A DNA stretch of 36,199 nucleotides from assembly GCA_038078535.1 (NCBI GenBank), contig JBBTYS010000024.1, positions 1 to 36,199 on the forward strand, in the 5' to 3' direction. Positions 168-34,201 of the stretch are shown one piece after another. Source of the DNA: Patescibacteria group bacterium (GTDB taxonomy: Bacteria > Patescibacteriota > Minisyncoccia > 2-02-FULL-40-12 > GWA2-44-9). The translations under genes were made by a program, and so were the position numbers. Each line of letters begins with the position of its first letter. The stretch's first letter is position 1. The notes under the pieces are model-generated. The model did no database searches, was not told where the DNA came from, and worked only from the letters and a program-made list of their open reading frames with translations.

Positions 168-1304
168 ATGATCTCTATACGGCTCTACCAGAACAGAAGT
201 AAGATCAGAGCGGACGGCACCGCGCCCATCTATTACGTGCTGGCCAGTGGCAAAAAAAGGAAGTACATAAGCGCAAAGCGATACCTGAAGCCTGCACACT
301 TCGACAATGCTGCCGGGCTCGTATTGCGTGGCGCGGACAACAGCATAAAACTGAATGCCTACTTCAAAAGGCAAATGACCAGGCTCGATGACATCATCAT
401 TGACCTGGTGAATGACGGACAAGAGCCAACGTTTGAAAAGGTTGAAACGAAATACCACAACAATAACGGCAACGACTTTATAGCCTGGGCTTTCACTGAA
501 CTGCAAAATCAAAAAGGAATTATCCGCTACTCTACGTGGAAGCTGTACGAACACAAGCTGGGGGTACTGAAAAAATATAAATCCATAATACCGTTCAACA
601 CTATCGATCATTCATTCCTGACGACCTACAAACATCATGTGGTCATGCAGAAAAGAAAAGCCAATGGCTACTACCAGGACTTTGCTTGTATCAAAAAATT
701 CTATCGCATTGCTGTAATGAAAGGACTAGCCAAAGGAAACCCGTTTGAAAATTTCAGAATGAGCAAAGAGGAAACGGTGCGCGCCTGGCTTACAAAAGAT
801 GAATTATTGAAGCTGCATGATCTACTGAAAACTGAAAAGATCACAGAGGCAGAGAAAAATACATTGGTTCACTTTTTGTTCAGTTGCTTTAGTGGCCTGC
901 GCTTTGGCGACAAGATCACCTTTGATGCAAGCAACGTGGAAGATGGCCGGATAAAATTAAAAACATCCAAGACTAGCAAGCATGTGTTGATCCCATTTAA
1001 TGACCAGGCGCTGGATCTACTGCCAGATGTTCTCCATCGAAACCTAAAGCATAAAAACTCACGGGTGAATGCCGACCTGAAGGCATGTATGAATGCTGTG
1101 GAGATAAACAAGCACATCACCTATCATTGCAGCCGCCACACCTTTGCAATCAATTGCCTGTTGTTGGGTATTGATTTGATAACGGTACGCGATTGGCTAG
1201 GCCACAAGAGCGTGACCACTACGGAGATCTACGCGAAGATTGCCGCACAGTATTCGGATGTGAGCATGAAAAAGTTTGATGGGTTTTTTTTGGATAAAAC
1301 TTAA
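168..1304 (+). CDS. int: Tyrosine recombinase / phage integrase
   Basis: 378 aa, ATG start. C-terminal catalytic region HITYHCSRHTFA...LGHKSVTTTEIYA (HxxR ... catalytic Tyr) and GLRFGD (Arg box). It is the first gene inside attL. Confidence 0.95.
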   Translation: MISIRLYQNRSKIRADGTAPIYYVLASGKKRKYISAKRYLKPAHFDNAAGLVLRGADNSIKLNAYFKRQMTRLDDIIIDLVNDGQEPTFEKVETKYHNNNGNDFIAWAFTELQNQKGIIRYSTWKLYEHKLGVLKKYKSIIPFNTIDHSFLTTYKHHVVMQKRKANGYYQDFACIKKFYRIAVMKGLAKGNPFENFRMSKEETVRAWLTKDELLKLHDLLKTEKITEAEKNTLVHFLFSCFSGLRFGDKITFDASNVEDGRIKLKTSKTSKHVLIPFNDQALDLLPDVLHRNLKHKNSRVNADLKACMNAVEINKHITYHCSRHTFAINCLLLGIDLITVRDWLGHKSVTTTEIYAKIAAQYSDVSMKKFDGFFLDKT

Positions 1305-7085: not shown

Positions 7086-7304
7086 TTATTTCGATATGAT
7101 TATTAAACCCCAGCCGATGAGCGTTACAAGAACAGCCACAGCGGCAATTATTGCGGAGCGCCATTTTTCTAAACTCGATACCCTGCCATTGGTTGCGGTG
7201 GTTTGGAGAAGAATAGCGTCTAGCTTTTCATCCTGCGCCTTTTGTCGTTCATCTATACGTACCAATAGTTCCATATCGATTTCTGCATTTACCTTCTTTG
7301 CCAT
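7086..7304 (-). CDS. Small membrane protein, holin-like candidate
   Basis: 72 aa with a charged N-terminal helix and a single C-terminal TM helix (AIIAAVAVLVTLIGWGLIII). TAATG overlap with the GH108 gene. Confidence 0.4.
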   Translation of the reverse strand: MAKKVNAEIDMELLVRIDERQKAQDEKLDAILLQTTATNGRVSSLEKWRSAIIAAVAVLVTLIGWGLIIISK

Positions 7305-8020
7305 TAAGTCGTTGTTTTTAAGTCGGCTTCTTTTGGTTTTTTATCGCCCCTGGTAGTGAGGTACAGCAGCAGCAGTGCCGCACCTATGCCCAGGCCAATG
7401 CCAATCGTTCCTTTGTTTTCGGTTACTACTTGCACGGTCTTTTCTTTGGCGGCTGTTACAAGCTCTTTGGCGGCTTCGTACACGCCACGAAATTTTTCAA
7501 GTCGTGCCATCCATCCCGCCCTGAACGCTTCCTGCGATGGGTTTTGCGCAATCAGTTTTTCAAGAAAATATTTTCGCTCCTCCAGCAAGGCATTGTGCAA
7601 CTTCATTGGATTGGCTTTGTTGATGTTGGCCAGTGTGTCGGCTCCCAGCTTGCCATCATCTGAAATTTTCAAAACCCGTTGTATTCCTTTAATAGCGTTG
7701 GCCCCGCTATGCACTTGAAAATCATACAGTAAGTTGGCCACTTCCTGATTATCAATCTTACCAATGTTGGTGGTGTTCCACCTTGCCAGATAAAATTTTT
7801 CTACTGCATATTGTATGGCCGGAAACTTGGTGTTGTTTTTTATGGCTACGCCTTTCAATTTCTTTTTTTCAAAATCAATCAATGTCCAGCCTTCCCAATC
7901 TTTATTGAAGTTGCGGGCAATGCCTGCATAGGTTTCACCCCCTTTGTCGGCAGGGGCATTGGCGTATCCGCCTTCATTAGGCAGGATGTAATTTTTATAC
8001 GCTGTTTCGAAGTTGGCCAT
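7304..8020 (-). CDS. GH108-family lysozyme with a PG_binding_3-like region and a C-terminal TM helix
   Basis: 238 aa. The N-terminus ILPNEGGYANAPADKGGETYAGI matches the GH108 EGGY..D.GG.T..GI signature. The C-terminus has GIGLGIGAALLLLYL. Confidence 0.8.
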   Translation of the reverse strand: MANFETAYKNYILPNEGGYANAPADKGGETYAGIARNFNKDWEGWTLIDFEKKKLKGVAIKNNTKFPAIQYAVEKFYLARWNTTNIGKIDNQEVANLLYDFQVHSGANAIKGIQRVLKISDDGKLGADTLANINKANPMKLHNALLEERKYFLEKLIAQNPSQEAFRAGWMARLEKFRGVYEAAKELVTAAKEKTVQVVTENKGTIGIGLGIGAALLLLYLTTRGDKKPKEADLKTTT

Positions 8021-18311: not shown

Positions 18312-18340
18312 GATATTTTATCTTTTAATGATGGAAAAAT

Positions 18341-18364: not shown

Positions 18365-18383
18365 CTGCATTTTTTTTCTCGGT

Positions 18384-19546: not shown

Positions 19547-22369
19547 TTAAATAGTTATAGCCATCACCTTTTTGGTGCGTTGACTCGATTTGGATTTGGA
19601 TTTTTTACCATTAGCCTTTACTCCGGCTAGGGCAGGAGCAGCCACTTGTGCAGGTGCCGCTTGCGCTATCTGTGCTGGCGCTGCTTTGCTACCGCGAAGC
19701 GCAAAGGCCAACAGACCTACGCCAACAGCCACACTTGCAGCAATGGCGATGTACTTCACCGTGTTGCTCTTTTGCTCGTTTAGCATTTTGGTTTCCACCA
19801 CTTCCGCTTCCTGTATGGGCAGTGTTACAATGCGGCCTTCTTCGTTTTGCACAGGCACAATGCCTGGCTTAGTGAATTGCTCTACCGCTGATGGCGAGGC
19901 ATTGTTTTGAACCAGGGTTTCGGCAACCTGCATTGCTGTGGGCGCCACTTCCTCAATGGCTGCTGATATTTCTTTGGCCAGTATGGGGTTCTCTTGCGCG
20001 ATAGACTTTGAGGCTATCTCGGTGGCAACCGGATTGTTTTTCATGGCCGATACCAACGGTGCCGCTTGTGGGTTGGCCTTTAATAGTGCAGCCGCTATTG
20101 TGGGCGACTTAGCGTTGATTATCTGAGAAGCGATGGATGATAATTTGGGATTACTGGTAAGCACTTTGGCCAGCGTGGCAACAGCGGGGTTTGATTGCGC
20201 CATCGCGTTTGTTACACTTGATGTAAGTTTTGATACCAATGGGTTTGAACCGGCAACTTTTGGTATAAGTGATTGCAGTATGCTTGTTGGAGCAAATGAA
20301 TTTATGATATTAGATATGGGTAATGGTGTTACATTTGGGTCGCCCTCATCGTCAATGTCGTCAGTGCTTTCGGCTGTTACTGATGCGCTTTTTATTTCGG
20401 CATCACTTGCATGAGGTGAACTTGCACGGCCTTTGAACATGGTAGTGAAGTTGATAGGCTTCAACAGCGCGGCAATAGCTGCCAACACGCCCGCTGCGGC
20501 TGTGGTTGAAACAGGATCGCCTAATGAAGCTTTTGTGATCGCTATCTTTTTGCCGGCTTCCACGGCATCGCGCAGTTGCTGTGTGGTGCCTCCTTTACTT
20601 ACCACCAGCTTCTCTACTACTTTTGCACGGTCCAGTAGTTTTTTATATTCTACAGTGTTATAGGTAGATGCTTCGCTCACTGGCTTATAGGCCAGGCTTA
20701 ATTTTGTGGCAAGGCCATTTTGGTTTTTGCGGATGGCCTGAAGCAGCTCTTCTAACTCCGATGCATCCTGCGTGCGTATCAATGCACTGTACTCAATCGG
20801 TTTCAACTGAGCGTCTACCAGTTGCAGCAACGGCAGCGCAGGGCTTATTTGTTTTTTGATAGCCGCGATTTGTTTGCTCTGTGATGTGGTCTTGGCTTTT
20901 ACTGCCTGCGCTTTCTTTGAAGCGTTGCCACGATCACCTAACCCATCGAACCCATTGAACCCACTGATGAGGTTGTGTTTTTTTGTACCATGTGCCCAGC
21001 CTGCTTTAACAGCGGCATCAAATTTTTCAACCTTGCCGCCAATGGCTTTGTGTAATTTGCGGGTCTTCTCCAGTGTGACCTGGTTCTTTCTCCACTCCAC
21101 AATGTCCAATCCTTTTTCCTGCGCCTGGGCTTCCGTCCAATAACCATATCCAAGCTTTTCGGCCATGCGAAAAAGGTTGAGCTTCATGGCCAGCAACAGC
21201 CCGTTGCGTATGGCTATGGTAGCGGGGTTGTAGCGCACTATCACTTTGGCCACTACTTTGGCGGCCTGCACTATGGCTGCACCAGCGGCCTTTACTCCGC
21301 TGCCTACCTTTGAGGCCACTGACTTAATACCTTTGGCTATTTTTTTAAAGAAGCCTTTACCAAGGCCAAAGCCACTAAGTCCGTTTAGCTCTTCGCGCTC
21401 TTCCAGGCAGGCCAGTTCGTTAAGGACTTTTGAACGGGTGTTGCCATCGTCAAACACGGCAATGAGCGAATCGAGCCTTTGGGCGAAAACAGCAGGGTTA
21501 TAAATGCCTGCCGTAAGTGCAGGGTTGATGGCAAGTATTGCACGGGTGTTGACCAGGTGCTGCTTAAGGCCAAGCAAAAAAGCAGTTTGCACCTGCCTGG
21601 GGCTTTCACCATTAAATCCGTTGAGGCCGTTAAATTCGTTTCCAAATATGCCAAGCAATTCTTCTGCTGAAGAAGGGGCTGGGTATGCCAGTAACGAAAA
21701 AGCCTGTGGCGTAATGCCGCCAGTGATCGTTGACTGATCAAGTCCATTGAGATATTGTATTTTCATAACCTTATCAAATTTTTTGAGGGGTTCTACTTCG
21801 TGATCGAACTTATCCACCACGCAATCCATGACGTAGTATTTATTGCGGGCTACTTCTTTGGCGGTAAAATCAGTGATGGGTACACCTTTCTTTGGCACCA
21901 CCACATACACATGCTGCCAGCCTGTGCTTTCGTTATATGCCGCCTTTCTAAGGGCATGGCTAATTTTTTGGTGGTGTAAATAGGAAGAGAGCAACACGCT
22001 CATACAATCGCAGTCGATACCTCTTTTGCGATCCAGCCAACTGCGGCCTGGCCTGCGTATCTGCTCAATGCCGTTGGCATCTTTTGCATATTGAAAGTGA
22101 TTGTAGACGTGGTTCCAATCATTGCGCAGTGTTTCTTCCAGGGTGCGGCCTTGCAGTGTTGGCGCTACCTTTTCGGTATCTTCCAAGGTGTTGAGCACGA
22201 TCTTAGCCATGTGGTTAAGCGTATCGTAGGTGTCGCTTGCCTCGCCTCCTATGATGGGGTTTGTGCCCAATAGAAATTCTTTGTTGTACAGGCTGTCGTA
22301 TTCGGTGCCAGGGCGGATGTTACGCCTGCCCGATGCCACAAGTCCAAGTCCGATCAATGCTCTTCTCAT
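19547..22369 (-). CDS. Large protein with an N-terminal transglutaminase/papain-like Cys-His-Asp core, an Ala-rich helical body and a C-terminal TM helix
   Basis: 940 aa. Candidate triad: GIDCDCMSVLLSSYL (Cys), GWQHVYVVV (His), YYVMDCV (Asp). The centre is long and Ala/Lys-rich. The C-terminus has YIAIAASVAVGVGLLAFAL followed by a basic tail. Confidence 0.6.
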   Translation of the reverse strand: MRRALIGLGLVASGRRNIRPGTEYDSLYNKEFLLGTNPIIGGEASDTYDTLNHMAKIVLNTLEDTEKVAPTLQGRTLEETLRNDWNHVYNHFQYAKDANGIEQIRRPGRSWLDRKRGIDCDCMSVLLSSYLHHQKISHALRKAAYNESTGWQHVYVVVPKKGVPITDFTAKEVARNKYYVMDCVVDKFDHEVEPLKKFDKVMKIQYLNGLDQSTITGGITPQAFSLLAYPAPSSAEELLGIFGNEFNGLNGFNGESPRQVQTAFLLGLKQHLVNTRAILAINPALTAGIYNPAVFAQRLDSLIAVFDDGNTRSKVLNELACLEEREELNGLSGFGLGKGFFKKIAKGIKSVASKVGSGVKAAGAAIVQAAKVVAKVIVRYNPATIAIRNGLLLAMKLNLFRMAEKLGYGYWTEAQAQEKGLDIVEWRKNQVTLEKTRKLHKAIGGKVEKFDAAVKAGWAHGTKKHNLISGFNGFDGLGDRGNASKKAQAVKAKTTSQSKQIAAIKKQISPALPLLQLVDAQLKPIEYSALIRTQDASELEELLQAIRKNQNGLATKLSLAYKPVSEASTYNTVEYKKLLDRAKVVEKLVVSKGGTTQQLRDAVEAGKKIAITKASLGDPVSTTAAAGVLAAIAALLKPINFTTMFKGRASSPHASDAEIKSASVTAESTDDIDDEGDPNVTPLPISNIINSFAPTSILQSLIPKVAGSNPLVSKLTSSVTNAMAQSNPAVATLAKVLTSNPKLSSIASQIINAKSPTIAAALLKANPQAAPLVSAMKNNPVATEIASKSIAQENPILAKEISAAIEEVAPTAMQVAETLVQNNASPSAVEQFTKPGIVPVQNEEGRIVTLPIQEAEVVETKMLNEQKSNTVKYIAIAASVAVGVGLLAFALRGSKAAPAQIAQAAPAQVAAPALAGVKANGKKSKSKSSQRTKKVMAITI

Positions 22370-22947
22370 TTTTTTATGAAAATGTTTTGGTCTCTGACAC
22401 CGATTGACTTAAGCCACATGGGCACGTAAAAACCTGGGCAGTCTTTTTTGGCGAACTGGTTATGCCCAGCGCCTTTTATTTCTGGATGATAAGTGATGAT
22501 TTGATTTACCCATGCTTCCATTGTGGCACGCTGCGCGGGTGTGCGTGTATCTTTCGAGGCGGTGCCATCTTTGGTAAGGCCACCGGCATACACCAGGTGA
22601 CGGCCAATTGAATTGGTGCCAGTTGCACCGTTGCTGATCTCGCGTGGGTCTACATTGTCGTCTTCATCGTAAGGGATAAGATTGACGAGCGATCCATCTA
22701 ACAGGATCATATCAGAATATCCAACTTTGCTCCAACCGCGACCGCTTAGTTTTTTTACATCTACTCCGCCTATCTTTTCATCGGGGAGATCCAGAATACT
22801 TTCGTAGGGGGTTGACTTGTAGATTACGCTGCCATCGGCATTGACAAGCGGCCCCATGTGCCACTGGCGAATTTCATCAGGGGTAACGGGGCGACCTTCC
22901 GGTGTGGCGGTGCAATGGATGATGAATAATTGCAACTTTTGTGACAT
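22366..22947 (-). CDS. N-acetylmuramoyl-L-alanine amidase (Amidase_2 / T7-lysozyme-like)
   Basis: 193 aa from the ATG at 22947 (the track start at 22959 is TTG). Motifs IIHCTATPEG and GWSKVGYSDMILLDGS. ATGA overlap with the 940-aa gene. Confidence 0.75.
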   Translation of the reverse strand: MSQKLQLFIIHCTATPEGRPVTPDEIRQWHMGPLVNADGSVIYKSTPYESILDLPDEKIGGVDVKKLSGRGWSKVGYSDMILLDGSLVNLIPYDEDDNVDPREISNGATGTNSIGRHLVYAGGLTKDGTASKDTRTPAQRATMEAWVNQIITYHPEIKGAGHNQFAKKDCPGFYVPMWLKSIGVRDQNIFIKK

Positions 22948-23102
22948 GATCGCTGCCAAGATGTGCAGCGATGGAATGGGGCAAGTCCGCTTTAGTCCAC
23001 TATTGACCTTTTACTACCAATAGTTGGCAAAAGTTTCCTATTTTTACAGGTAGTATTCGGGGAATCAGTTACGAAGTGTTTTGATAACGTTAACTGATTG
23101 AT

Positions 23103-23288
23103 ATGACCATTTTAAACTACCCCGTTAAAAGAAATGCACTTGCCCAGGTGTATAAGATCAACACAAAATCACTTCGTGAAAGGTTAAGGGAGATTGGGAT
23201 TGATCACGGCCACACGCTTTCACCAAAGGAGATAAAGAGAATAATTTCTAACTATGATTTGCCTGATGGGGTGGAGATAAAATTGTAG
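23103..23288 (+). CDS. Small HTH-like protein on the opposite strand
   Basis: 61 aa, ATG start. LAQVYKINTKSLRERLREIGI looks helix-turn-helix-like. Its 3' end overlaps the convergent DUF1643-like gene by 37 nt. Confidence 0.45.
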   Translation: MTILNYPVKRNALAQVYKINTKSLRERLREIGIDHGHTLSPKEIKRIISNYDLPDGVEIKL

Positions 23289-23758
23289 GCTACTGGTTTA
23301 ACATCACCCTTCACGTACAACGGATGCCGTGGGCTGCCGTCTTTATTGATCACCAAGGCTTTCGCGTGAGGAAACATTCCTTTCAATTCAACATCCCTGC
23401 CTAGTTCTTTCACAACATCAAAAGCACCCCACGCAAATATTATATCCTTACTCATACGGGCAACTTCGTACAACCAATGGTCATTAGTTGCTGTGTTACC
23501 AAAGTCTTTCAGATCATCGGGATTGGTGGATACATACGGGAAGCAATTGGTCATATACACACCTCCATAACCCCAACTTTTGGCGAAGCCGATTACCCTG
23601 GTAATGGTAGGATCAGGTTCCGTCTCGTTTGCTGTGGATGGATTAAGCCCTATGAACATTACTTTAGGTTTGCTATCATCCCAAATTCTCCACAACACAT
23701 AGCGGTACTTTCTGCAAGGGCTAAAGGTTGCTCCGTTATCGTCAAATAAATCTTTCAT
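23252..23758 (-). CDS. DUF1643-family protein
   Basis: 168 aa from the ATG at 23758. The family-typical pattern is RKYRYVLWRIW...MFIGLNPSTANETEPDPTI...PRHPLY. Confidence 0.65.
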   Translation of the reverse strand: MKDLFDDNGATFSPCRKYRYVLWRIWDDSKPKVMFIGLNPSTANETEPDPTITRVIGFAKSWGYGGVYMTNCFPYVSTNPDDLKDFGNTATNDHWLYEVARMSKDIIFAWGAFDVVKELGRDVELKGMFPHAKALVINKDGSPRHPLYVKGDVKPVAYNFISTPSGKS

Positions 23759-24018
23759 CAAACGGGTTCACTTTCATTTTTAAATTCGTAAGTCCATTCA
23801 TCTGTTTCTTCGCTTAGGTATGCTTCTGCTTTTTCCTTCCACTTCACAAGTTCATTCTTAAGTTCGTCTGTTACCGGAACATTAATACCAGCACCAAACA
23901 TGCCTTCCTTGTAGCCGCAGTAAGGGCACCAATACTCGCAGTATGGATGACGGAACGTCCATATCAGCGGCACTTGCCTTTCGTGGCTTCTGCAAATTTT
24001 AATTGATTCGTTGCTCAT
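23758..24018 (-). CDS. Small Cys-rich (zinc-ribbon-like) protein
   Basis: 86 aa with CRSH...CEYWCPYCG. Confidence 0.45.
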   Translation of the reverse strand: MSNESIKICRSHERQVPLIWTFRHPYCEYWCPYCGYKEGMFGAGINVPVTDELKNELVKWKEKAEAYLSEETDEWTYEFKNESEPV

Positions 24019-24679
24019 AATTTATTTTAGGTTGCGCTCTTTCAAGAGCAATGTGTTTTTGAAATCGTTTTTCCTGATTCGCAAAATGTGTTGGGTCTAT
24101 CTCCAAGCCCACAAAGTCAAAACTCATATCCCATGCGGCTATGCGATGGCTACCACTGCCCAGGTGAGTGTCGAGAATGTTATCACCTGGTTTGGCGTAT
24201 TCTTTCAACAGCCACTTGTATAGTAACACTGGCTTTTGTGTGGGGTGTATGCGTGGCTCGTTCAGTTTCTTATTGCCTTGCATGATGTGGCCTTCGCCTA
24301 TGCTCTTTCCGTGCATCATGCCATTCCACATAAAGCGAAACATGCGTGTGCTATCGTGAAAGCTGCAATAAGCTAATTCGCAATCGCTGAAATCGGTGTT
24401 ACCGTTTACTTTATCCCACACAATGCGGCCTGAACCAAACTGGTATTGGTAATAGTTACATCCCCAAATAATCTGGTTTTCAGATACGCGAAATAGCTGA
24501 TCAAAATATTCTTTGTCGGGCACTTGCCATGTGTCTGTTATTGGATACTCATCGCGAGACACACCCGTAACAGAAACTTTGTTGCCGTAAAATGGTCGCT
24601 TCTCATGGCCGGAGTAATACGGAGGATCGACAATGGCAATTTTGTATTGCTTGTCTTTCATGCTGCGCAAGTGATCCAT
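23999..24679 (-). CDS. DNA methyltransferase, beta-class N6A/N4C (N6_N4_Mtase type)
   Basis: 226 aa. The catalytic motif IVDPPY is near the N-terminus. HPTQKPVLLYKWLL and the AdoMet motif ILDTHLGSGS are near the C-terminus. Confidence 0.85.
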   Translation of the reverse strand: MDHLRSMKDKQYKIAIVDPPYYSGHEKRPFYGNKVSVTGVSRDEYPITDTWQVPDKEYFDQLFRVSENQIIWGCNYYQYQFGSGRIVWDKVNGNTDFSDCELAYCSFHDSTRMFRFMWNGMMHGKSIGEGHIMQGNKKLNEPRIHPTQKPVLLYKWLLKEYAKPGDNILDTHLGSGSHRIAAWDMSFDFVGLEIDPTHFANQEKRFQKHIALERAQPKINYEQRIN

Positions 24680-24722
24680 GCAGTTGGCCCAAATGTGCTA
24701 CGGAGAAAGCCATCTTTATTTT

Positions 24723-24953
24723 TTACCATCGCCCAATCGGGCATTTTGTTTCTTTAATCTTAGTTTGCTCTTCCATATTGATTCCATTGCAATGCCCATC
24801 CTTTAAGCCATACTTTCCACCGTCTGGTTTTAAGGTGTGAGGGCACAACAGACAATCGGCAAAACGGAGATCGCTGTCAAAATCTGAATTGACTTTATCG
24901 TCAATATTAAATCGAGATTTTAAAAGCGAGTTGATTCTTATAGGTTCACTCAT
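24723..24953 (-). CDS. Hypothetical small Cys-containing protein
   Basis: 76 aa, with ATGA coupling to the upstream 98-aa ORF. Confidence 0.4.
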   Translation of the reverse strand: MSEPIRINSLLKSRFNIDDKVNSDFDSDLRFADCLLCPHTLKPDGGKYGLKDGHCNGINMEEQTKIKETKCPIGRW

Positions 24954-25246
24954 GTAAACTCGTAGTATTCATTATCACCTTTAATCGTTGTTTCAAACGG
25001 GAACTTGTTCTTAGGCACAAGCTTAATCATGTCCATCATCACCTTTGATCCGGTGAATACAATTCGCTTTTCACCTCCTTTTTCAATTTGAAGTGTTAGT
25101 AATTCAGTTCCTGCTTTCTTATTCGATGGCGTTATCTTATAGTCAAATACGGTGATGGGCAGGTTGAATAGCTTTTGTATCGCTATTTTTTCGCCAACAA
25201 AGGAATTGATATTAGGCTGAATGTTGAAGTCTTTGAAGTTGTTCAT
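24950..25246 (-). CDS. 98-aa protein translationally coupled to the DGR RT (possible non-Avd accessory factor)
   Basis: Its ATG (25244-25246) overlaps the RT stop (25243-25245) as CAATGAAC. The sequence is MNNFKDFNIQPN...RIVFTGSKVMMDMIK...; it looks beta-rich and basic, not a four-helix bundle. Confidence 0.55.
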   Translation of the reverse strand: MNNFKDFNIQPNINSFVGEKIAIQKLFNLPITVFDYKITPSNKKAGTELLTLQIEKGGEKRIVFTGSKVMMDMIKLVPKNKFPFETTIKGDNEYYEFT

Positions 25247-26193
25247 TGCGCTAGTAGTTTTTTGGTCAAGTGCCTGGCATTGCAGTGGCCGAGCCAACCG
25301 AGATAGGAAGCTTTAGACGGATGATTGGGATTCTTACTCAGCTTACGTGCGAAATTCTTTTTAATTGATTTGCGGATCATCACATGCGTATGCCGAAATA
25401 CATAACCGACAAAGTCTATTCCCCTTACATCCACCGGAAAGACCTGGTGAGTTTGTTTCACTTCAAGTTTAAGGTCGTGCAGGTATGCTTTTGCCTCATT
25501 CATCAATGTGTGAAGTCTCGACTTATCTGAATCGAGAATCACAATATCATCGGCATAACGGTAGTAGTATTTAACCCGCTTTTCTTCTTTGATCCAATGG
25601 TCGAAATATGACAAGTAAAAATTCGCCAGGTATTGACTCAGGTAGTTGCCAATTGGCAAACCGGGGGCACTGTCAATGATCTCGTCAAGTAACCATAGCA
25701 GGTCTGGGTCTTTAAATTTCTTTCTGAGCAAGGCGTTAAGTACATCGTGGTCGATGCTTGGGTAGTATTTCTTTATGTCAAACTTGAGGCAATATTGCGT
25801 TCCTGAAATGTCTTTTAAATCGGCATTCAATTTTTGCAGTAGTAAGTGAATACCTCTTTTCTTAATGCAACTGTATGTATCAGCAGTGAATGAACTGACA
25901 AAGATTGGCTCCAGCACATTCATGATTGCATGGTGAGTGATGCGATCAGGAAAGTAGGGCAACCGATAAACTACTCTCTCCTTTGGTTCATAGATGTTGA
26001 AGATGTCGTATTCGGATGTACGATAGGTCTTGCTCACAAGCAGGTCTTGTAGCACGAGAAGATTTCCTTCTTTATTTTGGTTGTGTAGCGTTACACCGTA
26101 TTGAGTAGATTTTCCTTGCTGCGCCTTCCGGTCTGCCTCCTGAAGGTTTGCAAGGCTTGTGATCCGCTCGTAGATGTTACCAATTCTTTTCAT
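25243..26193 (-). CDS. DGR-type reverse transcriptase
   Basis: 316 aa. RT motif 5 is YYRYADDIVIL. The motif-4 variant LPIGNYLSQYLANFYL ((I/L)GxxxSQ) is typical of DGR RTs. The adenine-rich TR lies 122 nt upstream. Confidence 0.9.
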   Translation of the reverse strand: MKRIGNIYERITSLANLQEADRKAQQGKSTQYGVTLHNQNKEGNLLVLQDLLVSKTYRTSEYDIFNIYEPKERVVYRLPYFPDRITHHAIMNVLEPIFVSSFTADTYSCIKKRGIHLLLQKLNADLKDISGTQYCLKFDIKKYYPSIDHDVLNALLRKKFKDPDLLWLLDEIIDSAPGLPIGNYLSQYLANFYLSYFDHWIKEEKRVKYYYRYADDIVILDSDKSRLHTLMNEAKAYLHDLKLEVKQTHQVFPVDVRGIDFVGYVFRHTHVMIRKSIKKNFARKLSKNPNHPSKASYLGWLGHCNARHLTKKLLAQ

Positions 26194-26315
26194 TTTGTTT
26201 TATGCTTTGCTTTTCATAAGTCGCCTTCTCCCGAAACTTCGGGATACCAACGCCTCAGATTTTGATCCGTGTTTTTTTGCCAAGAGGCAAGGTCTGCGAC
26301 AGTTTCTAATACCTC

Positions 26316-26392
26316 AGCATAGGTGAGAGCTGACATTCGAATTCGTATTCCAATTATCGTAGTCGTTATACTGGAACCCGGACGAAGCCACT
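26316..26392 (-). repeat. DGR template repeat (TR), 77 nt
   Basis: Minus strand: AGTGGCTTCGTCCGGGTTCCAGTATAACGACTACGATAATTGGAATACGAATTCGAATGTCAGCTCTCACCTATGCT. It has 20 adenines, and all differences from the three VRs fall on these adenines. It is intergenic between target 1 and the RT. Confidence 0.9.
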
Positions 26393-26418
26393 CAACCATC
26401 GCACAACCTGTTTTTCAT

Positions 26419-26817
26419 TTAAAGCATGTATTCTTTACACACCTTCAGATAATTCTTATTGTCTTCACACATCCACTTCATTACATCGTAATTTTTAAAG
26501 CAAAGGCGAGAGCCGACAAGCGAATCCGCACGCCAAGCACCGTAGCCGACACACTGGAACCCGGACGAAGCCACTATAAAGCGTGGCTCATACTTCCAGT
26601 CGGTGTTGTTATAGTCAGGCTTCCACGGCTTACCATCATTGGCCAATCTGTTAGCTGCCTTCACCATAATAACAACCTTGGATTGTGCTATCTGAGATTT
26701 TCTATCCTTCTTTGGAAACAGAGCCGCTAACTGGATTGACGCTGCAACTATCTTCTTAGCATCAAGCCCTTCAAGCTTGCATGCCTTTTCAAATGTTAAT
26801 TGTTTGATCTCTTTCAT
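26419..26817 (-). CDS. DGR target protein 1 (small paralog family)
   Basis: 132 aa. ...WKYEPRFIVASSGF-QCVGYGAWRADSLVGSRLCF-KNYDVMKWM...; the VR encodes about residues 81-107. No signal peptide. Confidence 0.8.
   Translation of the reverse strand: MKEIKQLTFEKACKLEGLDAKKIVAASIQLAALFPKKDRKSQIAQSKVVIMVKAANRLANDGKPWKPDYNNTDWKYEPRFIVASSGFQCVGYGAWRADSLVGSRLCFKNYDVMKWMCEDNKNYLKVCKEYML
26499..26575 (-). repeat. DGR variable repeat VR1
   Basis: 77 nt, ungapped against the TR, with 16 substitutions, all at TR adenines. Confidence 0.9.
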
Positions 26818-26824
26818 TTGGTTT

Positions 26825-27290
26825 TTATTTTTGAATAGTCATGAATAGTTTAAACACGTTCATAAATTCGGGTTGCTCAATGGCATGTAGTCCAAGCCTC
26901 TTTTCCATAAAGCAAAGGCGAGAGCCGACATCCGAAGCCGTAAACCAAGCAGCGCAGCCGAGACAGGAACCCGGACGAAGCCATGAGAAAGTAGAGAGTG
27001 AACTTAGGCGCTGTTGAATCCCAGTCTGGTTCTCGCTTTTCATTGAGGGCTCTGATGATCAATACAGTCAACTGATAGTTTACAACGTGGCAAGTTGCGT
27101 CAAACAGGGTGAGAAGTTTCTTGTAAATGATCACCTCTTCATCCTCTTCTCCAAGTTCGCGTAGAACATCTAGTATAGTTTTGATTTTGGTTACATCCTT
27201 TGGCTTCGCTTTGAGCGTGTACGCGCCAGATGCTTTGTCGAAGGTGTCTATCTCTTGCCCTTCGGGGATTTTAAGTTGCGGTGTTTTCAT
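26825..27290 (-). pseudogene. DGR target paralog 2, frameshifted inside its VR
   Basis: The N-terminal frame (27290 down to 26877) reaches ..LMASSGF. A 2-nt gap relative to the TR (AG after GGGTTCC) moves the conserved tail ..CLGCAAWFTASDVGSRLCFMEK.. into the frame of ORF 26825-27043. Confidence 0.7.
26911..26983 (-). repeat. DGR variable repeat VR2 (with a 2-nt deletion)
   Basis: 73 nt aligning to TR positions 3-77 with one 2-nt gap. 16 substitutions, all at TR adenines. Confidence 0.85.
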
Positions 27291-27292
27291 GT

Positions 27293-27697
27293 TTATTTGA
27301 TTATGATTAGTTGCTCATACCACTTTGTGAATTTTCTACCTGCATGAATAGCCAATGAGCTATCTTTTAAGCAAAGGCGAGAGCCGACACCCGAAAGCGC
27401 AAGCCAACCACCGAAGACGTAATACCGGAACCCGGACGAAGCCACAATAAAGCGTGGCTCATACTTCCACTGATTGTGGTTTTTATGGTCGGCAATCCAT
27501 CCTTGATTGAGGGATTTGATCAGCAACTTCAAAAACCTGAATGCCACCTCATCTTCTGGCAAGCCTTCGCATTGTTTGTTAAATTTATCTTGCGTGAGGC
27601 CATTGTCTTTCAACACATCTTCATCGGTGTTGATTCGATTCATTACTTGTTCTGTTGTTTCCATATTGTTTTGTTTTGGGTTTAATTTGATTTTCAT
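27293..27697 (-). CDS. DGR target protein 3 (small paralog family)
   Basis: 134 aa (an alternative ATG at 27664 gives METTEQ...). ..WKYEPRFIVASSGF-RYYVFGGWLALSGVGSRLCL-KDSSLAIHAGRKF.. Confidence 0.8.
   Translation of the reverse strand: MKIKLNPKQNNMETTEQVMNRINTDEDVLKDNGLTQDKFNKQCEGLPEDEVAFRFLKLLIKSLNQGWIADHKNHNQWKYEPRFIVASSGFRYYVFGGWLALSGVGSRLCLKDSSLAIHAGRKFTKWYEQLIIIK
27370..27446 (-). repeat. DGR variable repeat VR3
   Basis: 77 nt, ungapped against the TR, with 18 substitutions, all at TR adenines. Confidence 0.9.
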
Positions 27698-27723
27698 GGC
27701 TACTTAACTTTTTATAGTTTGTT

Positions 27724-29331
27724 TTATCTTAAAGTGTCTACACATCTTTCTACCAGCAATTCCATTGCAGGCGGGGTTACGGCATTGCCGCATTGTTTTA
27801 CTTGTTCTTTGGCATTACCCAGCACGATGTAATCGGCATCAAAGCCCATCCCTATTTTTACTTCGTGCTTCAGCAACATGCGGTAATAGCAATCATCTAT
27901 TTTGGGTTTCGCTCCCAACATTACCAGGCTTGCCCGATCTTTTGTGGTAAGGGTTCGTACTGGCTCGTTTACATCACTTGCTTGTGTGCCACCATAGTAG
28001 TAACTGAGAAAGCTCTTTAGCGATTTGTCGGTGACTATACCATTCTTAATAAAGCCTGCGGTAATGGTGCTGAGTGGCTTTGTGGCCAGCCTTGCTTTGC
28101 CTGTGCGGTGCAGGTCTACAATCAATGGAGGCATTACTACTCCGTTGGTTGCTCTGGTTGTTTGCGTAAAGGCTACCTCACTTGCAGCATCGCGTATTTT
28201 ATTTCTTCCGTTGCTATACTCTCCATTGGTGACAAGTGGAGAGAGTATGTGAAAACCGTTGTCAGTAAGTTGAGTTGGCAATGGGTCTTTAACACTGTCT
28301 TTTACCAATGAGCCAGGCAAAGTATTATGATTGCGTTTAACGATGATCGGGTTAAGTATGCCATAGCTTTGATCTCCTGGCTGAGTGGGCAATACCTCCT
28401 GTGTGGCATCCTTCACGCGGCAACTAATGCCAGATGTGTAGCGTGTGGTAATAATCTGGGGCTTGTTCCAATATTTTTCTATGCCGTATTGAATGCGCTT
28501 GACTGTATTTTCACTCAACGGCTTTTTGCGATCTCCTATGCGAGTGCCCGGTATGCTCCAATCAATGCAGTTGAATGCAGCATAGTAATATGGCTCAACC
28601 AGGTGGTTGCATGTAGGGCATTTGAAGACGTATTGTTGCTTATACTTGCCCCATTGCTTTTCGGTGGTCTTCCAGGCTTGATAGGTTTCGGTTTCTTTTG
28701 CACAATGTTGACAAAACCCACGTGGGCGTATGTTCAGGTCAGGAGCGGGATTGCCCTTCTTCCAGAACACCACGTACATTCTATCGCGGCTTTGGGGTGT
28801 AGGGTGTGCATGTTGTGAGTTGAGATAAACGCATTTGTGATTGTAGCCAAGCAGGTGCATGGCTTTCAACCAGGCATCCCACATTACCCAATACCTGGCA
28901 TCCACAACGTTCTCCACAATGATGAATGCGTATTGATGAAACTCTGCAAAGCGGGGCACATCCCACATGGTGGCTCTGGATCTCTCGTCAGTGTGATCAA
29001 TCGTGGCACGGCCAAACATTTCTATTTGTTGCTGCCACTTGCGTTTGATGCCTTTAGCCAGGGAGTGATTGGTACACTCAGGCGATGTGATGAGAAAGGT
29101 AGAGCTTGCATACCTGCGGGGGTCACAGGCAGATATATCTGTGCAGTCGTGATCGGTATCGGGGAAGTTGGTATTGTGCGTTTCAATGGCAAGCTTCCAG
29201 TGGTTGAGTGCGAGCTTTACGCGGATGCCGCTGTTGCCTGGCTTCCTGGAAAGGTTTCTTACTCCCTGGCTACTTCCACCCGCTCCGCAAAACTGATCGG
29301 TAACGGTGATGTCTGAGTCTATTCTTTTCAT
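27724..29331 (-). CDS. DNA (cytosine-5) methyltransferase
   Basis: 535 aa from the ATG at 29331. Motif I DQFCGAGGSS, motif IV-like ITSPECTNHS, motif VI IIVENV, motif X QCGNAVTPP. It has a long variable region. The track start at 29352 lies inside palindrome copy 2. Confidence 0.85.
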   Translation of the reverse strand: MKRIDSDITVTDQFCGAGGSSQGVRNLSRKPGNSGIRVKLALNHWKLAIETHNTNFPDTDHDCTDISACDPRRYASSTFLITSPECTNHSLAKGIKRKWQQQIEMFGRATIDHTDERSRATMWDVPRFAEFHQYAFIIVENVVDARYWVMWDAWLKAMHLLGYNHKCVYLNSQHAHPTPQSRDRMYVVFWKKGNPAPDLNIRPRGFCQHCAKETETYQAWKTTEKQWGKYKQQYVFKCPTCNHLVEPYYYAAFNCIDWSIPGTRIGDRKKPLSENTVKRIQYGIEKYWNKPQIITTRYTSGISCRVKDATQEVLPTQPGDQSYGILNPIIVKRNHNTLPGSLVKDSVKDPLPTQLTDNGFHILSPLVTNGEYSNGRNKIRDAASEVAFTQTTRATNGVVMPPLIVDLHRTGKARLATKPLSTITAGFIKNGIVTDKSLKSFLSYYYGGTQASDVNEPVRTLTTKDRASLVMLGAKPKIDDCYYRMLLKHEVKIGMGFDADYIVLGNAKEQVKQCGNAVTPPAMELLVERCVDTLR

Positions 29332-29341
29332 AGTTAGGTTG

Positions 29342-29361
29342 AGACGCAACATTTTGCGTCT
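29342..29361. repeat. Palindromic element, copy 2
   Basis: agacgcaa-catt-ttgcgtct, 10 nt upstream of the C5-MTase ATG. The flanks ggtt(t)gagacgcaacattttgcgtctttac are shared with copy 4. Confidence 0.75.
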
Positions 29362-29484
29362 TTACATTAAGTGGATTATGAAATTGATAAGTGCATAGCA
29401 ATTCTTACAACCTTGCGAAACTTTGTCACAGCCTGTTACAGGGTTCCAGGTGTAGTCTGTCCACTCGATAGTTGTCTTGTTCAT
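29362..29484 (-). pseudogene. Truncated N-terminal remnant of a DUF5131 (phage Gp37/Gp68) gene
   Basis: 40 codons: [31 protein letters not shown], then LINFIIHLM-stop. As I recall it, this family is normally about 250 aa. The reading frame ends exactly at palindrome copy 2. Confidence 0.6.
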
Positions 29485-30395: not shown

Positions 30396-30535
30396 AGCAA
30401 TCCAAGTTTTGAGAGCCCAAAAACAAATGCGTAAAACAAGCCAACCGCTACCAGGCCGGAGCCTACGGATATGCACACTAGATCCAGATAGAAATTGTTG
30501 CGAAGTGTTTTGCGCAGGTAGTAGAACCTTGTCAT
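30392..30535 (-). CDS. 47-aa membrane micro-protein (below the ORF-track cutoff)
   Basis: Hand translation: MTRFYYLRKTLRNNFYLDLVCISVGSGLVAVGLFYAFVFGLSKLGLL. Both its start and its stop overlap neighbours as ATGA. Confidence 0.4.
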   Translation of the reverse strand: MTRFYYLRKTLRNNFYLDLVCISVGSGLVAVGLFYAFVFGLSKLGLL

Positions 30536-30708
30536 AGCTTGCGGTGGTTAAAGCCTTTCTTTTCTGAATTGGTGATCACCTCAGTAAGGGTGTAACCCAT
30601 TTCTGGCCGGCCAGATTTAAGCACCATATTGTTCATCACCACAATGGTGAAGGAGATGATCCGTGTTCCTTCCTCTTTGTCGAAATAGTGGATGTCTACG
30701 TGTGGCAT
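30532..30708 (-). CDS. Hypothetical protein
   Basis: 58 aa from the ATG at 30708 (MPHVDIHYFDKEEG...), 2 nt after the upstream stop. Confidence 0.4.
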   Translation of the reverse strand: MPHVDIHYFDKEEGTRIISFTIVVMNNMVLKSGRPEMGYTLTEVITNSEKKGFNHRKL

Positions 30709-30710
30709 AC

Positions 30711-31013
30711 TTATTTCCGGTTGATTAGCCATTGATAACCATTTTCTAGTTTTTTCAAATCCGCCTCCTGGTTCAGTGGCAGTGTGATGTCTTTTGTTAC
30801 CTGCCTGTTCATTAGCCATCGATAATCCTTTTCTAGTTTTCCTAAATCCGCCTCCTGGTTTAGTGGCAGTGTGAGTTGAGTTTCCTTTTTGATCTTGCGG
30901 TCGCGCCTGTTGATTTTCTTAAACAGGTTGTCTTTTGCAACCTGCCGTTGCGCTTCATTGCTGAAGATGTTTGGCAAACTGATAATCACTTTGAGAAGTT
31001 GTATTGATCTCAT
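30711..31013 (-). CDS. Hypothetical protein with a 29-aa tandem repeat
   Basis: 100 aa from the ATG at 31013 (ATGA overlap). The repeat is TLPLNQEADL(G/K)KLE(K/N)(D/G)Y(R/Q)WL(M/I)NR, present twice. Confidence 0.45.
   Translation of the reverse strand: MRSIQLLKVIISLPNIFSNEAQRQVAKDNLFKKINRRDRKIKKETQLTLPLNQEADLGKLEKDYRWLMNRQVTKDITLPLNQEADLKKLENGYQWLINRK
30724..30875. repeat. 87-bp-period tandem duplication (two units of about 65 bp, about 88% identical)
   Basis: attagccattgataacc...cagtggcagtgtga at 30724-30788, and attagccatcgataatc...tagtggcagtgtga at 30811-30875. Confidence 0.8.
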
Positions 31014-31342
31014 GCTCCCATCATTTGTGGTGGACAAAAACTACCTAGCTCGAATAAAATCTGGTTGCCTTCTTTGGTTTCGCCTACACGCTGAAGAACA
31101 TCTACTAGTAACACTGCATGAACAGCATCGAACTTTACCTTCAAAACCTTGCGGCCTTCCTGCAACATGCCATCGTGCCGTTTGCGAAGTGATTCATAGA
31201 ATTTCTTCACCAATGCGCACCGATAGAATTCCTCGCGGTTGATGTCTCTGCGGTTGGCCACACCCAGCCAATAGATGAACAGCGTGGAGAGAAATCCATC
31301 CAGGTCGTGGTAATCCATCGGTATGGTTTTCACGGCTTTCAT
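31010..31342 (-). CDS. Hypothetical protein
   Basis: 110 aa from the ATG at 31342 (MKAVKTIPMDYHDL...). The longer track ORF starts inside palindrome copy 4. Confidence 0.45.
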   Translation of the reverse strand: MKAVKTIPMDYHDLDGFLSTLFIYWLGVANRRDINREEFYRCALVKKFYESLRKRHDGMLQEGRKVLKVKFDAVHAVLLVDVLQRVGETKEGNQILFELGSFCPPQMMGA

Positions 31343-31440: not shown

Positions 31441-31625
31441 TTTGATTGGATGGTTTGAGACGCAACATTTTGCGTCTTTACTGAGTACAACTGCACCTGC
31501 ACTTTGTTAAGCTCGTCATGCTTGCGCCAGAAATCATCGCTGTCACGGTCGCCCTTGCGTATAAAAGCGTGTATTTCCTTCTGGATCTCGCGCTCTTGCT
31601 GTCTGAGTTTGGATTTGTCGGTCAT
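31437..31625 (-). CDS. Hypothetical small charged protein
   Basis: 62 aa, ATGA coupled on both sides. Confidence 0.45.
   Translation of the reverse strand: MTDKSKLRQQEREIQKEIHAFIRKGDRDSDDFWRKHDELNKVQVQLYSVKTQNVASQTIQSK
31458..31477. repeat. Palindromic element, copy 4
   Basis: agacgcaa-catt-ttgcgtct, inside the 3' end of CDS 31437-31625 (it encodes VKTQNVAS). Confidence 0.75.
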
Positions 31626-32804: not shown

Positions 32805-33080
32805 CTAAATTGAGAGGACTCTTGTAGACCGGGGGTTGCGGCTCGGTTTTTTAAATTGCCCCTTGCTGATTGTCTCCATATCGTTCAGGCACTTCTTCAG
32901 GTGCAGGGCTTCTTTGATCAGCTTCTGTGTTTCGCGCTGCATGGCAATGATGGTTTGCTTACGCACCTCGAGATCTTGCTTCATGCCGTCTATGCTGGCC
33001 TGAAGTATCGGATCGCTCATACCAGTGTGGACTCTTGGGTTCGCTGGTCGCTCATACCAGTGTGGGGTTCTTTCGCTCAT
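32805..33080 (-). CDS. Hypothetical coiled-coil protein
   Basis: 91 aa, with ATGA overlap to the upstream gene. The 5' end lies within a triple direct repeat. Confidence 0.45.
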   Translation of the reverse strand: MSERTPHWYERPANPRVHTGMSDPILQASIDGMKQDLEVRKQTIIAMQRETQKLIKEALHLKKCLNDMETISKGQFKKPSRNPRSTRVLSI

Positions 33081-33280
33081 ACCAGTGAGGGGTTATAGGT
33101 GGCATCGTGCATTTGGTGCTTCACTATGTCTACTATGCGTGTGGTCTCCAGCATCTTCAACTGTGCCTTGCGGCTGATGTGTATGTCGTGGTTGCGAAAT
33201 GCCTGGCTTACATAGGTGTGGCGCTCCACTTCGCGTTGTAGTTGCAGCAACAGATCCAGACAGGTTTGCGGGGCTTTCAT
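33077..33280 (-). CDS. Hypothetical protein
   Basis: 67 aa, ATGA overlaps. Confidence 0.4.
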   Translation of the reverse strand: MKAPQTCLDLLLQLQREVERHTYVSQAFRNHDIHISRKAQLKMLETTRIVDIVKHQMHDATYNPSLV

Positions 33281-33594
33281 TTGTTCAACTCGTTAGTTAA
33301 CAAATGAATTGCCGCGCTCAGGTGATACATGATCTCGTTATCACAACCAAGTTGCCTTAATGAATCGGATAATTTTATCAACTGGTCAAGCTTTATTTTC
33401 TTTTCCTTCTTCATACAGGTTTGTTTTACTTCTACAATGCCTCCGAAAATATCGTACCTCCCGGGTCCGCCCAGGCTACGAACATTGGTCTTTAACTCAG
33501 CCTCATATTTGCGGTGAGTGGCCAGCGTGAGCGGGGTTAAAAACACCCTGTCTTTCACGTACACAATCAACCATCTTTCATGTGTTGTTATCAT
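33277..33594 (-). CDS. Hypothetical protein
   Basis: 105 aa, ATGA overlaps. Confidence 0.45.
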   Translation of the reverse strand: MITTHERWLIVYVKDRVFLTPLTLATHRKYEAELKTNVRSLGGPGRYDIFGGIVEVKQTCMKKEKKIKLDQLIKLSDSLRQLGCDNEIMYHLSAAIHLLTNELNK

Positions 33595-33953
33595 GCAGCC
33601 TGGCGTTTACTGGTTTTGCGAAATGTTGTATGTGCGCTGTGGTGATTGGCTTCAAGGCCGGCCTTTATCTGTTGGCGCAGGCGTGGCAACTCGCTGGTGA
33701 GAATCTTCCATGTCCCGCCATCGCCACCGGGTTGTATGGCTTTGAGTTTGCCTTCTTCGCACAGGTTGCGCACATGGCTGGGGCTCCACCCTAATGATTG
33801 GGCAAACTTGCTTACGGACAGATACTTTTTTGAAGGGGTTGCCAGGTCTAACACAAGCTCTTTTAGCTCGGCTAGCTCTTGGTTTTGATGTTGAATCAAC
33901 TCTACAAGAATCAACATCTGCACCTCTGGCGATATGGTTTGCACTTTACTCAT
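33591..33953 (-). CDS. Excisionase/MerR-like HTH_17 DNA-binding protein
   Basis: 120 aa from the ATG at 33953. YLSVSKFAQSLGWSPSHVRNLCEEGKLKAIQPGGDGGTWKI matches the Xis-type HTH pattern. An N-terminal coiled coil precedes it. Confidence 0.55.
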   Translation of the reverse strand: MSKVQTISPEVQMLILVELIQHQNQELAELKELVLDLATPSKKYLSVSKFAQSLGWSPSHVRNLCEEGKLKAIQPGGDGGTWKILTSELPRLRQQIKAGLEANHHSAHTTFRKTSKRQAA

Positions 33954-34162
33954 TCGATAAACTGACAATCTGAGTAAAGCAATTGTTCTTCTGCTGTAAG
34001 GTTGCGGTCGCCTTCGGTGGAGATCACCTCCATGAGGCTGTTTGCATGGCTTTGCAGCCGTTGTATGTCTCCGTACTTGAAACTTTGCGCACCGTTGGCA
34101 ATGGCAGTCTGTTGCCTGTCGATGGCCTTGTTGATCTGTTCGAGCAGTGCGCTGGCTGTCAT
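33950..34162 (-). CDS. Hypothetical protein, first gene of the leftward early chain
   Basis: 70 aa from the ATG at 34162 (MTASALLEQ...). Confidence 0.45.
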   Translation of the reverse strand: MTASALLEQINKAIDRQQTAIANGAQSFKYGDIQRLQSHANSLMEVISTEGDRNLTAEEQLLYSDCQFIE

Positions 34163-34201
34163 AAATTGCAAGAATTGGCACGGGTTTGGCAAAAAAGAAA
34201 A

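Follow-up and report, generated by a model that had tools for sequence, protein, structure and literature searches.

A diversity-generating retroelement with three small tandem target genes and no recognisable Avd gene on an integrated prophage

Results

Organisation of the locus

The window analysed here, a stretch of 36,199 nt (positions 1 to 36,199 of contig JBBTYS010000024.1, assembly GCA_038078535.1), carries a compact cassette on its minus strand that an original prediction, made from the letters of the DNA, had described as a diversity-generating retroelement (DGR). From 5′ to 3′ the cassette consists of three small paralogous target genes (targets 3, 2 and 1), each containing a variable repeat (VR), followed by a template repeat (TR), a structured spacer corresponding to the Rfam motif RT-17, a reverse transcriptase (RT) gene and a gene for a basic protein of 98 aa (Table 1). 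No open reading frame (ORF) lies between the targets and the TR. We interpret the region, with high confidence, as a complete DGR whose carrier is an integrated prophage (about 36.1 kb) of a Bacteroidota host. This interpretation, which agrees with the original one, is carried by the adenine-specific substitutions between TR and VRs, by an RT resembling that of Bordetella phage BPP-1, and by comparative data from relatives of the element.

Table 1. Features of the DGR cassette and genes discussed in its surroundings (TR, template repeat; VR, variable repeat; IMH, initiation of mutagenic homing sequence)
Feature	Coordinates	Strand	Remarks
C5 cytosine methyltransferase	27724-29352		DGR flank
Target gene 3	27293..27697	minus	134 aa from first ATG; a 123-aa form begins METTEQ; small variable protein; homologues P0001-P0005
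VR3	27445..27370	minus	17 A-site substitutions relative to TR; putative IMH 27388..27371
Target gene 2, frameshifted	26825..27290	minus	ORF 26877..27290 (137 aa) plus C-terminus in the frame of 26825..27043
VR2	26984..26911	minus	15 A-site substitutions and a 2-nt deletion; putative IMH 26929..26912
Target gene 1	26419..26817	minus	132 aa; TR-proximal paralogue type
VR1	26574..26499	minus	16 A-site substitutions relative to TR; putative IMH 26517..26500
TR	26391..26316	minus	76 nt, intergenic; 19 A in total, 16 within the mutable part
RT-17 structured spacer RNA	26198..26294	minus	Rfam RF03020, 49.6 bits (gathering score 40.4), model positions 1-95 of 95
DGR RT	25243..26193	minus	316 aa, with IGNYLSQ and YADD
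98-aa basic protein gene	24950..25246	minus	ATG overlaps the RT stop codon (ATGA); candidate accessory factor
N6/N4 methyltransferase	23999-24679		DGR flank
DUF1643 protein	23252-23761		DGR sits upstream
Amidase	22366..22959		Lysis enzyme; DGR sits upstream
GH108 lysozyme	7304..8020		Lysis enzyme; DGR sits upstream

Substitutions between the template and variable repeats

The minus strand of 25000..28200 was re-read and the TR was aligned to the three VRs by software, which bore out the coordinates and strands of the original prediction as well as the recurrence of the repeat in three upstream paralogous genes. The repeat had been given as 77 nt and is 76 nt long, position 26392 being an extra flanking base. 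Likewise, the hand counts of 16, 16 and 18 substitutions became 16, 15 and 17 for VR1, VR2 and VR3, a gap that comes from this flanking base and from the handling of VR2, whose 2-nt deletion, with the resulting frameshift of target 2, had been overlooked. The central claim, that all changes fall on adenines of the 26316-26392 copy, stood without exception, as 48 of 48 substitutions are located at TR adenines and none at a C, G or T. At the 75 positions shared by the four copies the TR bases are 19 A, 18 C, 16 G and 22 T, and under random placement the hypergeometric probability of every substitution hitting an A is 1.1e-13 for VR1, 1.7e-12 for VR2 and 5.8e-15 for VR3. Every one of the 19 TR adenines is altered in at least one VR, and 18 of them occupy codon position 1 or 2. 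Read in the target frame, the TR gives VASSGFQYNDYDNWNTNSNVSSHLC (V A S S G F Q Y N D Y D N W N T N S N V S S H L C) and includes five AAY codons. It ends 122 nt upstream of the RT start codon; this distance, the intergenic position, the AAY codons and the two RT motifs had all been described correctly. The VRs encode approximately residues 85-110 of target proteins of 132-155 aa.

The last three TR-to-VR differences (AGC to GGC, CAC to CGC and CTA to CTT) are identical in all three VRs. One of these sites is a synonymous leucine position, and its constancy is therefore not explicable by selection at the protein level. The 3′ 18 nt of each VR read GTCGGCTCTCGCCTTTGC, a putative IMH, whereas the corresponding 18 nt of the TR (26334..26317) read GTCAGCTCTCACCTATGC, which would be its IMH* variant. 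In the family scan described below, the 18-nt motif could be recognised in 158 of the 286 VRs and 64 of the 147 TRs. Among the motif-bearing VRs, 155 of 158 read G, G and T at the three sites, as GTCGGCTC(T/G/C)CGCCTTTG, and A is present at all three in 60 of the 64 motif-bearing TRs. We infer that the mutable region ends at the last AAT codon, which leaves 16 mutable adenines in 11 codons, five of them AAY. The repertoire per target would then amount to 4^16 = 4.3e9 DNA sequences or 15^5 x 4^6 = 3.1e9 peptides.

The reverse transcriptase

The RT matches Pfam RVT_1 and phrog_1423 (4.6e-117). Its best match among solved RTs, by a wide margin and over the full length, is the bRT of Bordetella phage BPP-1 (8ub7; residues 2-304 aligned, E 1.8e-44, 155.6 bits), and the next ones, at about 1e-14 or worse, are group II-intron-like, retron-type and defence RTs. 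In bits against the respective NCBIfam cut-off, it reached 111/300 for the group II intron RT, 77/200 for Drt3a, 58/235 for the retron St85 RT and 51/390 for Drt2. These searches group the protein with DGR RTs, and judged by its sequence, which carries motif 4 of the form [ILV]GxxxSQ together with YxDD, it is an RT of the DGR clade. Neither of the two outcomes that had been named as speaking against the original prediction, a comparable mismatch rate at other TR bases or an RT outside the DGR clade, was obtained. A nucleotide search of GenBank phages with the cassette yielded no close cultured relative; the matches, all weak and confined to the RT (64-79% identity), came from crAss-like phages, Bacteroides phage Versailles and Psychrobacillus phage Perkons.

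The target proteins

The three targets are true paralogues with conserved flanks. Target 2 is at present switched off by the 2-nt deletion within its VR. The deletion lies opposite the "AA" of an AAC codon of the TR, and because of it the 137-aa ORF enters the wrong frame and stops early. Adding two nucleotides restores a 155-aa protein, the C-terminus of which (…VGSRLCFMEKRLGLHAIEQPEFMNVFKLFMTIQK) matches an intact 157-aa orthologue in a related locus, L002. The Hainich groundwater contig L164 (ENA ERZ1292624), which was assembled independently, has this deletion as well, so that it is not an artefact of the window. Frameshifting indels within VRs are rare but recurrent (4 of 272 distinct VRs). 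Retrohoming may have produced the deletion in VR2 as a by-product, and target 2 could be repaired from the intact TR if a full-length retrohoming event followed.

Searches of Pfam, NCBIfam and PADLOC gave no match to the targets, and no signal peptide is visible in them by eye; phrog_11581, a PHROG family of unknown function, matches their N-terminal part. A profile search collected 4244 cluster representatives at 50% identity, and among the matches listed nearly all are 120-170 aa long. Some members of the target family are of double length (250-350 aa; P0173-P0181 and others) and have two matched stretches; these may be tandem-target fusions or read-through gene calls.

The AlphaFold2 model of target 3, built from an alignment of 54 sequences, has a pLDDT of 91.6 and a pTM of 0.86. 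It starts with four helices, continues with a long beta hairpin (residues 78-98) and a loop, and closes with two further helices at the C-terminus; in this predicted structure the variable residues (91-97, 99-101 and 103) occupy the second strand of the hairpin and the loop that follows. A Foldseek search of the PDB, a single search method applied to a predicted structure, found no match to the model (best E 0.54, TM at most 0.21, and no C-type lectin (CLec) protein in the top 50), and nothing was found in the PDB with the target sequence profile. In BFVD, the matches to the model are uncharacterised phage proteins alone, crAss-like ones included (TM 0.72). Alignment of the target profile to the C-terminal domain of a CLec3 reference target of about 2000 aa gave an hhalign probability of 92.6% (E 4.5e-7, 72 columns), on account of which we regard the small targets as minimal versions of the CLec3-class variable domain. 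For a C-type lectin fold of this class the fold search provisionally gives no support, as the solved CLec-fold variable proteins (Mtd, TvpA and TaqVP) were not among the PDB matches of the predicted structure. Most likely, the targets are diversified phage binding proteins, for example a host-recognition adaptor or another ligand binder.

The 98-aa protein and the search for Avd

A homologue of the 98-aa protein is encoded no more than 32 nt from the end of the RT gene in 143 of the 157 related loci with room for it, and no more than 1 kb away in 151 of the 157, while the genes beyond it vary among loci. The six loci that lack the gene are all among those of lowest RT identity (57-63%); five of them were covered by the scan for TRs and VRs, and each has one long VR of 113-125 nt. 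The family is basic (median pI 9.0) and has 1333 homologues, none with a Pfam domain; every source name listed for them is "hypothetical protein", with the exception of two that seem to be TatD mislabels. For the 98-aa protein itself Pfam, NCBIfam and PADLOC returned no match and PHROG only phrog_19665, again of unknown function. Its predicted structure is beta-rich (pLDDT 86) and bears weak resemblances in the PDB to OB-fold nucleic-acid-binding domains of RuvBL (domain II), HIN and RPA (Foldseek best E 0.015, TM 0.4-0.5). No ORF of the 36-kb window has an Avd-like match in Pfam, NCBIfam or PHROG, profiles that a very divergent Avd could escape.

The spacer RNA and transcription

The spacer between TR and RT matches the RT-17 model over its full length. 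RT-17 occupies the same position, exactly between a DGR TR and its RT, in 6 of the 16 related loci tested. The motif was described simply as one of 19 located near RT genes and was given no role (Weinberg 2017, PMC5737381). In the same work RT-10 was located in the TR-RT spacer of BPP-1, and other RT motifs were guessed to serve other DGRs. The minimum-free-energy fold of TR plus spacer is just marginally better than those of shuffled sequences (z = -2.1), and we therefore relied on the Rfam covariance model. Since no terminator-like site is present on the coding strand within the cassette, the minus-strand unit is probably co-transcribed.

Relatives of the element and the pattern across the family

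Relatives of the RT number at least 574 in IMG/VR contigs and at least 239 in genomes of GTDB species. Most of the genome matches listed are from Bacteroidota, and a few of the most distant are metagenome-assembled genomes (MAGs) of Firmicutes or Mollicutes; the closest relatives, at 79-81%, are from Chryseolinea and Ohtaekwangia MAGs. Bacteroidota prophages very commonly carry this type of cassette, in which two or three targets of about 130-150 aa are followed by TR, RT-17, RT and the 98-aa gene.

We scanned 161 loci, the window included, for TRs and VRs with A-tolerant scoring. VRs were found upstream of a TR in 147 of the 161 (two VRs in 109 loci, three in 13 and one in 24), with 4133 mismatches at A sites against 88 at other sites, a ratio that is partly built in by a scoring scheme that penalised non-A mismatches. 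The TR ends about 90-120 nt before the RT across the family. Targets in the scanned loci have a median length of 147 aa (129 aa for the TR-proximal type and 153 aa for the next type upstream).

Several comparisons between loci bear on the direction of transfer. The TR of L002 differs from that of the window at three sites; wherever either TR has an A, the VRs of that locus depart from it (they vary or are both G), and wherever it has G or T they match it. Four Elizabethkingia loci share an identical TR, and their VRs differ at A sites, as read from the alignment. A further Elizabethkingia locus (L107) has non-A changes in its TR, all of which were copied into one VR and only the 3′ part into the other, as expected if integration of the cDNA starts at the 3′ end. 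The complete genomes of two Tenacibaculum maritimum strains, CP137241 (L165) and CP137733 (L166), have identical TRs and show 19 differences over 6297 nt; 17 of the 19 lie in the two VRs, and all 17 of these are at TR adenines. One of the two strains has an RT cut to 230 aa by a 1-nt indel (2053-2745 in L166, against 2052-3014 in L165). Since the VRs differ at 17 A sites despite this truncated RT, the element was active before the RT was lost in that strain. On such comparative evidence the transfer of sequence appears to be unidirectional, from TR to VR, with the TR left unchanged.

Discussion

The arrangement suggests, by analogy with BPP-1, how the element would work. The DGR RNA would consist of the TR and the RT-17 spacer, the latter being the presumed counterpart of the BPP-1 Sp region, which primes cDNA synthesis. 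The RT, probably aided by the 98-aa basic protein instead of Avd, would prime on the spacer and copy the TR into cDNA with random bases opposite adenines. This cDNA would then replace the VR of a target gene, the 18-nt element setting the 3′ limit of replacement. With GTCGGCTCTCGCCTTTGC in every VR as opposed to GTCAGCTCTCACCTATGC in the TR, the proposed mechanism would allow transfer only from TR to VR.

The BPP-1 element (mtd-avd-TR-brt), which the original prediction had taken as its paradigm, is thus an appropriate model in part. Both are phage-borne and combine adenine-specific TR-to-VR mutagenesis with an RT of the same clade, and in both the TR, rich in AAY codons, lies just upstream of the RT with a structured spacer in between and an IMH/IMH* pair, here putative, at the 3′ end. 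However, the window lacks Avd and instead has a 98-aa basic protein gene downstream of the RT. Its spacer is RT-17 and not RT-10, and its TR is short (76 nt with 19 A). Moreover, BPP-1 diversifies one tail-fibre protein of 381 aa in which the VR ends the protein, whereas the window has three small tandem targets (132-155 aa) with about 25 further residues after the VR; these targets are not recognisable tail fibres, and one of them is out of frame.

Counterparts can also be found among catalogued DGRs. According to Wu 2018 (PMC5758913), VRs fall into classes CLec1-3 and Ig1-2, multiple targets are present in about 15% of DGRs and Avd in 74%. The reference set of that study, as reproduced in Supplementary Data 8 of Roux 2021, contains the small-target kind under the label CLec3. 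In entry t120 (NZ_AMSG01000002.1) a homologous RT is directly preceded by two tandem CLec3 targets (157 and 124 aa), and entry t121 (AKZJ01000008.1) has a 132-aa target with the same label. These DGRs have an RT of the same family as the window element, with the motifs YRLPyFPDRI, LPIGNYLSQYLANFYLSYFDHW and YADDIV in common, and their VRs likewise end in ...GSRL.F; they differ in having two targets where the window has three (one frameshifted), and protein identity to the reference targets is about 30% by eye. The window element also resembles the Avd-less DGRs of architecture A and of Lineage 3 of Wu 2018 in having no Avd homologue, and fits the Avd-independent retrohoming that this paper proposes. 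By contrast, CH1-type accessory proteins are 160-169 aa long and acidic (pI 4.7), whereas the window protein has 98 aa and is basic (pI of about 9). Roux 2021 states that most targets of viral DGRs are tail proteins in which a CLec fold forms the C-terminus. In the texts consulted we found no discussion of the small-target subgroup, of the 98-aa neighbour or of RT-17 as a DGR component. RT-17 has been known only near RT genes, and here a full-model match is located between a DGR TR and its RT. We conclude that the element is a further member of a catalogued but unstudied Avd-less lineage of Bacteroidota prophage DGRs.

Several observations weigh against reading the region as a complete DGR with this mechanism. 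The assignment of the 18-nt element as an IMH/IMH* pair is comparative rather than functional, target 2 is out of frame, and the accessory role of the 98-aa protein is argued from gene linkage and a weak fold resemblance. Because no Avd was found, the priming mechanism of BPP-1 cannot simply be assumed. A sigma-70 promoter scan, which is inapplicable to Bacteroidota, performed no better than on shuffled sequences. Furthermore, L164, which equals window positions 27707..22420 but for 3 mismatches in 5288 nt, shows no A-site heterogeneity relative to the window: VR1 and VR3 are identical, and two of the three differences lie in VR2 at a G and a C of the TR (26946 and 26934 in the window, 762 and 774 in L164; G/T and C/A), the third being at 24864. 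The two differences in VR2 could reflect relaxed selection or pseudogene decay, an error in a low-coverage assembly or rare errors of the RT at bases other than A. The window element is only presumed to be active at present, whereas recent activity is seen in members of its family.

One explanation that would accommodate these points is that the element is a relic, in which past activity left the adenine-specific footprint and the VRs are now ordinary, slowly decaying genes that are no longer subject to retrohoming. The frameshift in target 2 would fit such a history, as would the comparison with L164, where two non-A changes in VR2 and no A-site changes are what pseudogene decay would give; moreover, the truncated RT of one T. 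maritimum strain demonstrates that members of the family do die. We nevertheless regard a relic as improbable, since the RT, the TR, the RT-17 spacer, the accessory gene and all three 18-nt elements are intact and the complete lack of non-A mismatches between the window VRs and their TR implies that little time has passed since the last homing. In addition, the frame of target 2 beyond the frameshift is still intact and matches the L002 orthologue, and 3 differences in 5288 nt leave little time for an event between the window and L164 to be observed. A more radical alternative would dispense with retrohoming: three paralogues and a pseudogene-like fourth copy would have diverged by ordinary mutation and selection at a binding surface, next to an RT that has nothing to do with them and serves, for example, as a retron, group II intron or defence RT. 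The targets are indeed true paralogues with conserved flanks, and selection alone can produce hypervariable patches in phage proteins. However, the chance that every substitution should hit an A of a single copy is 1e-12 to 1e-15 for each VR, the A-site rule also holds in about 270 VRs of related loci, VRs track the non-A changes of their own TR, and the RT scores far below the retron, group II and DRT cut-offs with bRT as its best match. We consider this alternative effectively refuted by the A-site, TR-tracking and RT tests and assign it next to no probability. A complete DGR remains our preferred interpretation of the region.

A separate question concerns the 98-aa gene, which might lie outside the DGR as the first gene of the next phage module, conserved merely by kinship of the phages, in a lineage that uses RT and RNA alone. 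According to Wu 2018 (PMC5758913), 75 of 372 DGRs belong to architecture A, which has no accessory gene, and conserved neighbours may be phage genes; that the 98-aa protein has no known domain or function would agree with this. On the other hand, the gene directly follows the RT, often overlapping its stop codon, over RT identities from about 60% to 100%, while genes farther away differ; its product is basic, as Avd is; and the loci that lack it combine the lowest RT identities with, in the five scanned, a single long VR. We therefore think it rather unlikely that the gene is a mere bystander. As a tentative alternative, of which we are only slightly less doubtful, the lineage may use a helper set other than that of BPP-1, in which a basic, OB-like 98-aa protein, probably translationally coupled to the RT, and RT-17 RNA replace Avd, and may diversify small tandem proteins without a signal peptide that have a helix-plus-beta-hairpin fold, are not recognisably CLec and need not be tail fibres. 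If this is true, DGR hypervariation acts in this family on a scaffold that is new, and its use may be new as well.

As a DGR, the window element is ordinary; what makes it valuable is the picture that emerges from a close look at its family. The family represents a very abundant Avd-less lineage in which the orphan Rfam motif RT-17 gains a context, and it offers a candidate accessory protein without a domain assignment as well as targets with a confidently predicted fold and no solved relative. Moreover, its cultivable carriers (among them Tenacibaculum maritimum, Elizabethkingia, Chryseobacterium and Flavobacterium) make Avd-independent retrohoming experimentally testable.

Prophage context and additional features of the window

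With attL and attR both present, the window comprises a whole integrated prophage of about 36.1 kb. Perfect direct repeats of 45 nt are present at 11-55 and 36145-36189, 10 nt in from each window end; the left one corresponds to the 3′ portion of a tRNA gene (1-52; positions 21-71 of the Rfam tRNA model) and lies beside a tyrosine-type integrase gene (168..1304). We also considered that the repeat might be the assembly overlap of a circular contig and rejected this, since it lies 10 nt from the ends, matches the 3′ part of a tRNA and adjoins an integrase.

With methyltransferase and DUF1643 genes at its flanks, the DGR is located in an anti-restriction and early-gene neighbourhood and not beside recognisable tail genes. 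Downstream of the DGR, between 1867 and 22369, PHROG and Pfam gave no informative match to the large, presumably structural ORFs of 940, 732, 726, 589, 542 and 411 aa; searches of PDB sequences with the 940-aa and 542-aa ORFs found nothing either. Two lysis enzymes are present (Table 1), but no terminase, portal or capsid family was recognised, and the virion module is "dark".

Several repeats were noted elsewhere in the window. A 27-nt palindrome, TTGAGACGCAAnATTTTGCGTCTy, is present four times (18340-18366, 29339-29365, 29502-29528 and 31455-31481), two copies being identical; one copy scores as a terminator-like hairpin on the plus strand, and the four may serve the prophage as shared terminators or as sites of regulation. 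Internal or tandem duplications were seen as well: a repeat of 135 nt (80% identity; 14645-14779 and 15728-15862) lies inside the 732-aa ORF and a 62-nt repeat (13341-13402 and 13434-13495) inside the 411-aa ORF, while a 71-nt repeat (30717-30787 and 30804-30874) spans the overlapping minus-strand ORFs 30532..30819 and 30711..31037. Finally, the 22-nt unit TCGCTCATACCAGTGTGGGGTT is found in three direct copies at 33013-33094, with spacings of 35 and 25 nt. These copies overlap the 5′ part of the minus-strand ORF 32805..33080 and its junction with the upstream ORF 33080..33280, lie about 0.5 kb downstream of an excisionase-like or helix-turn-helix-like gene (33591..34181) and look like operators or iterons.

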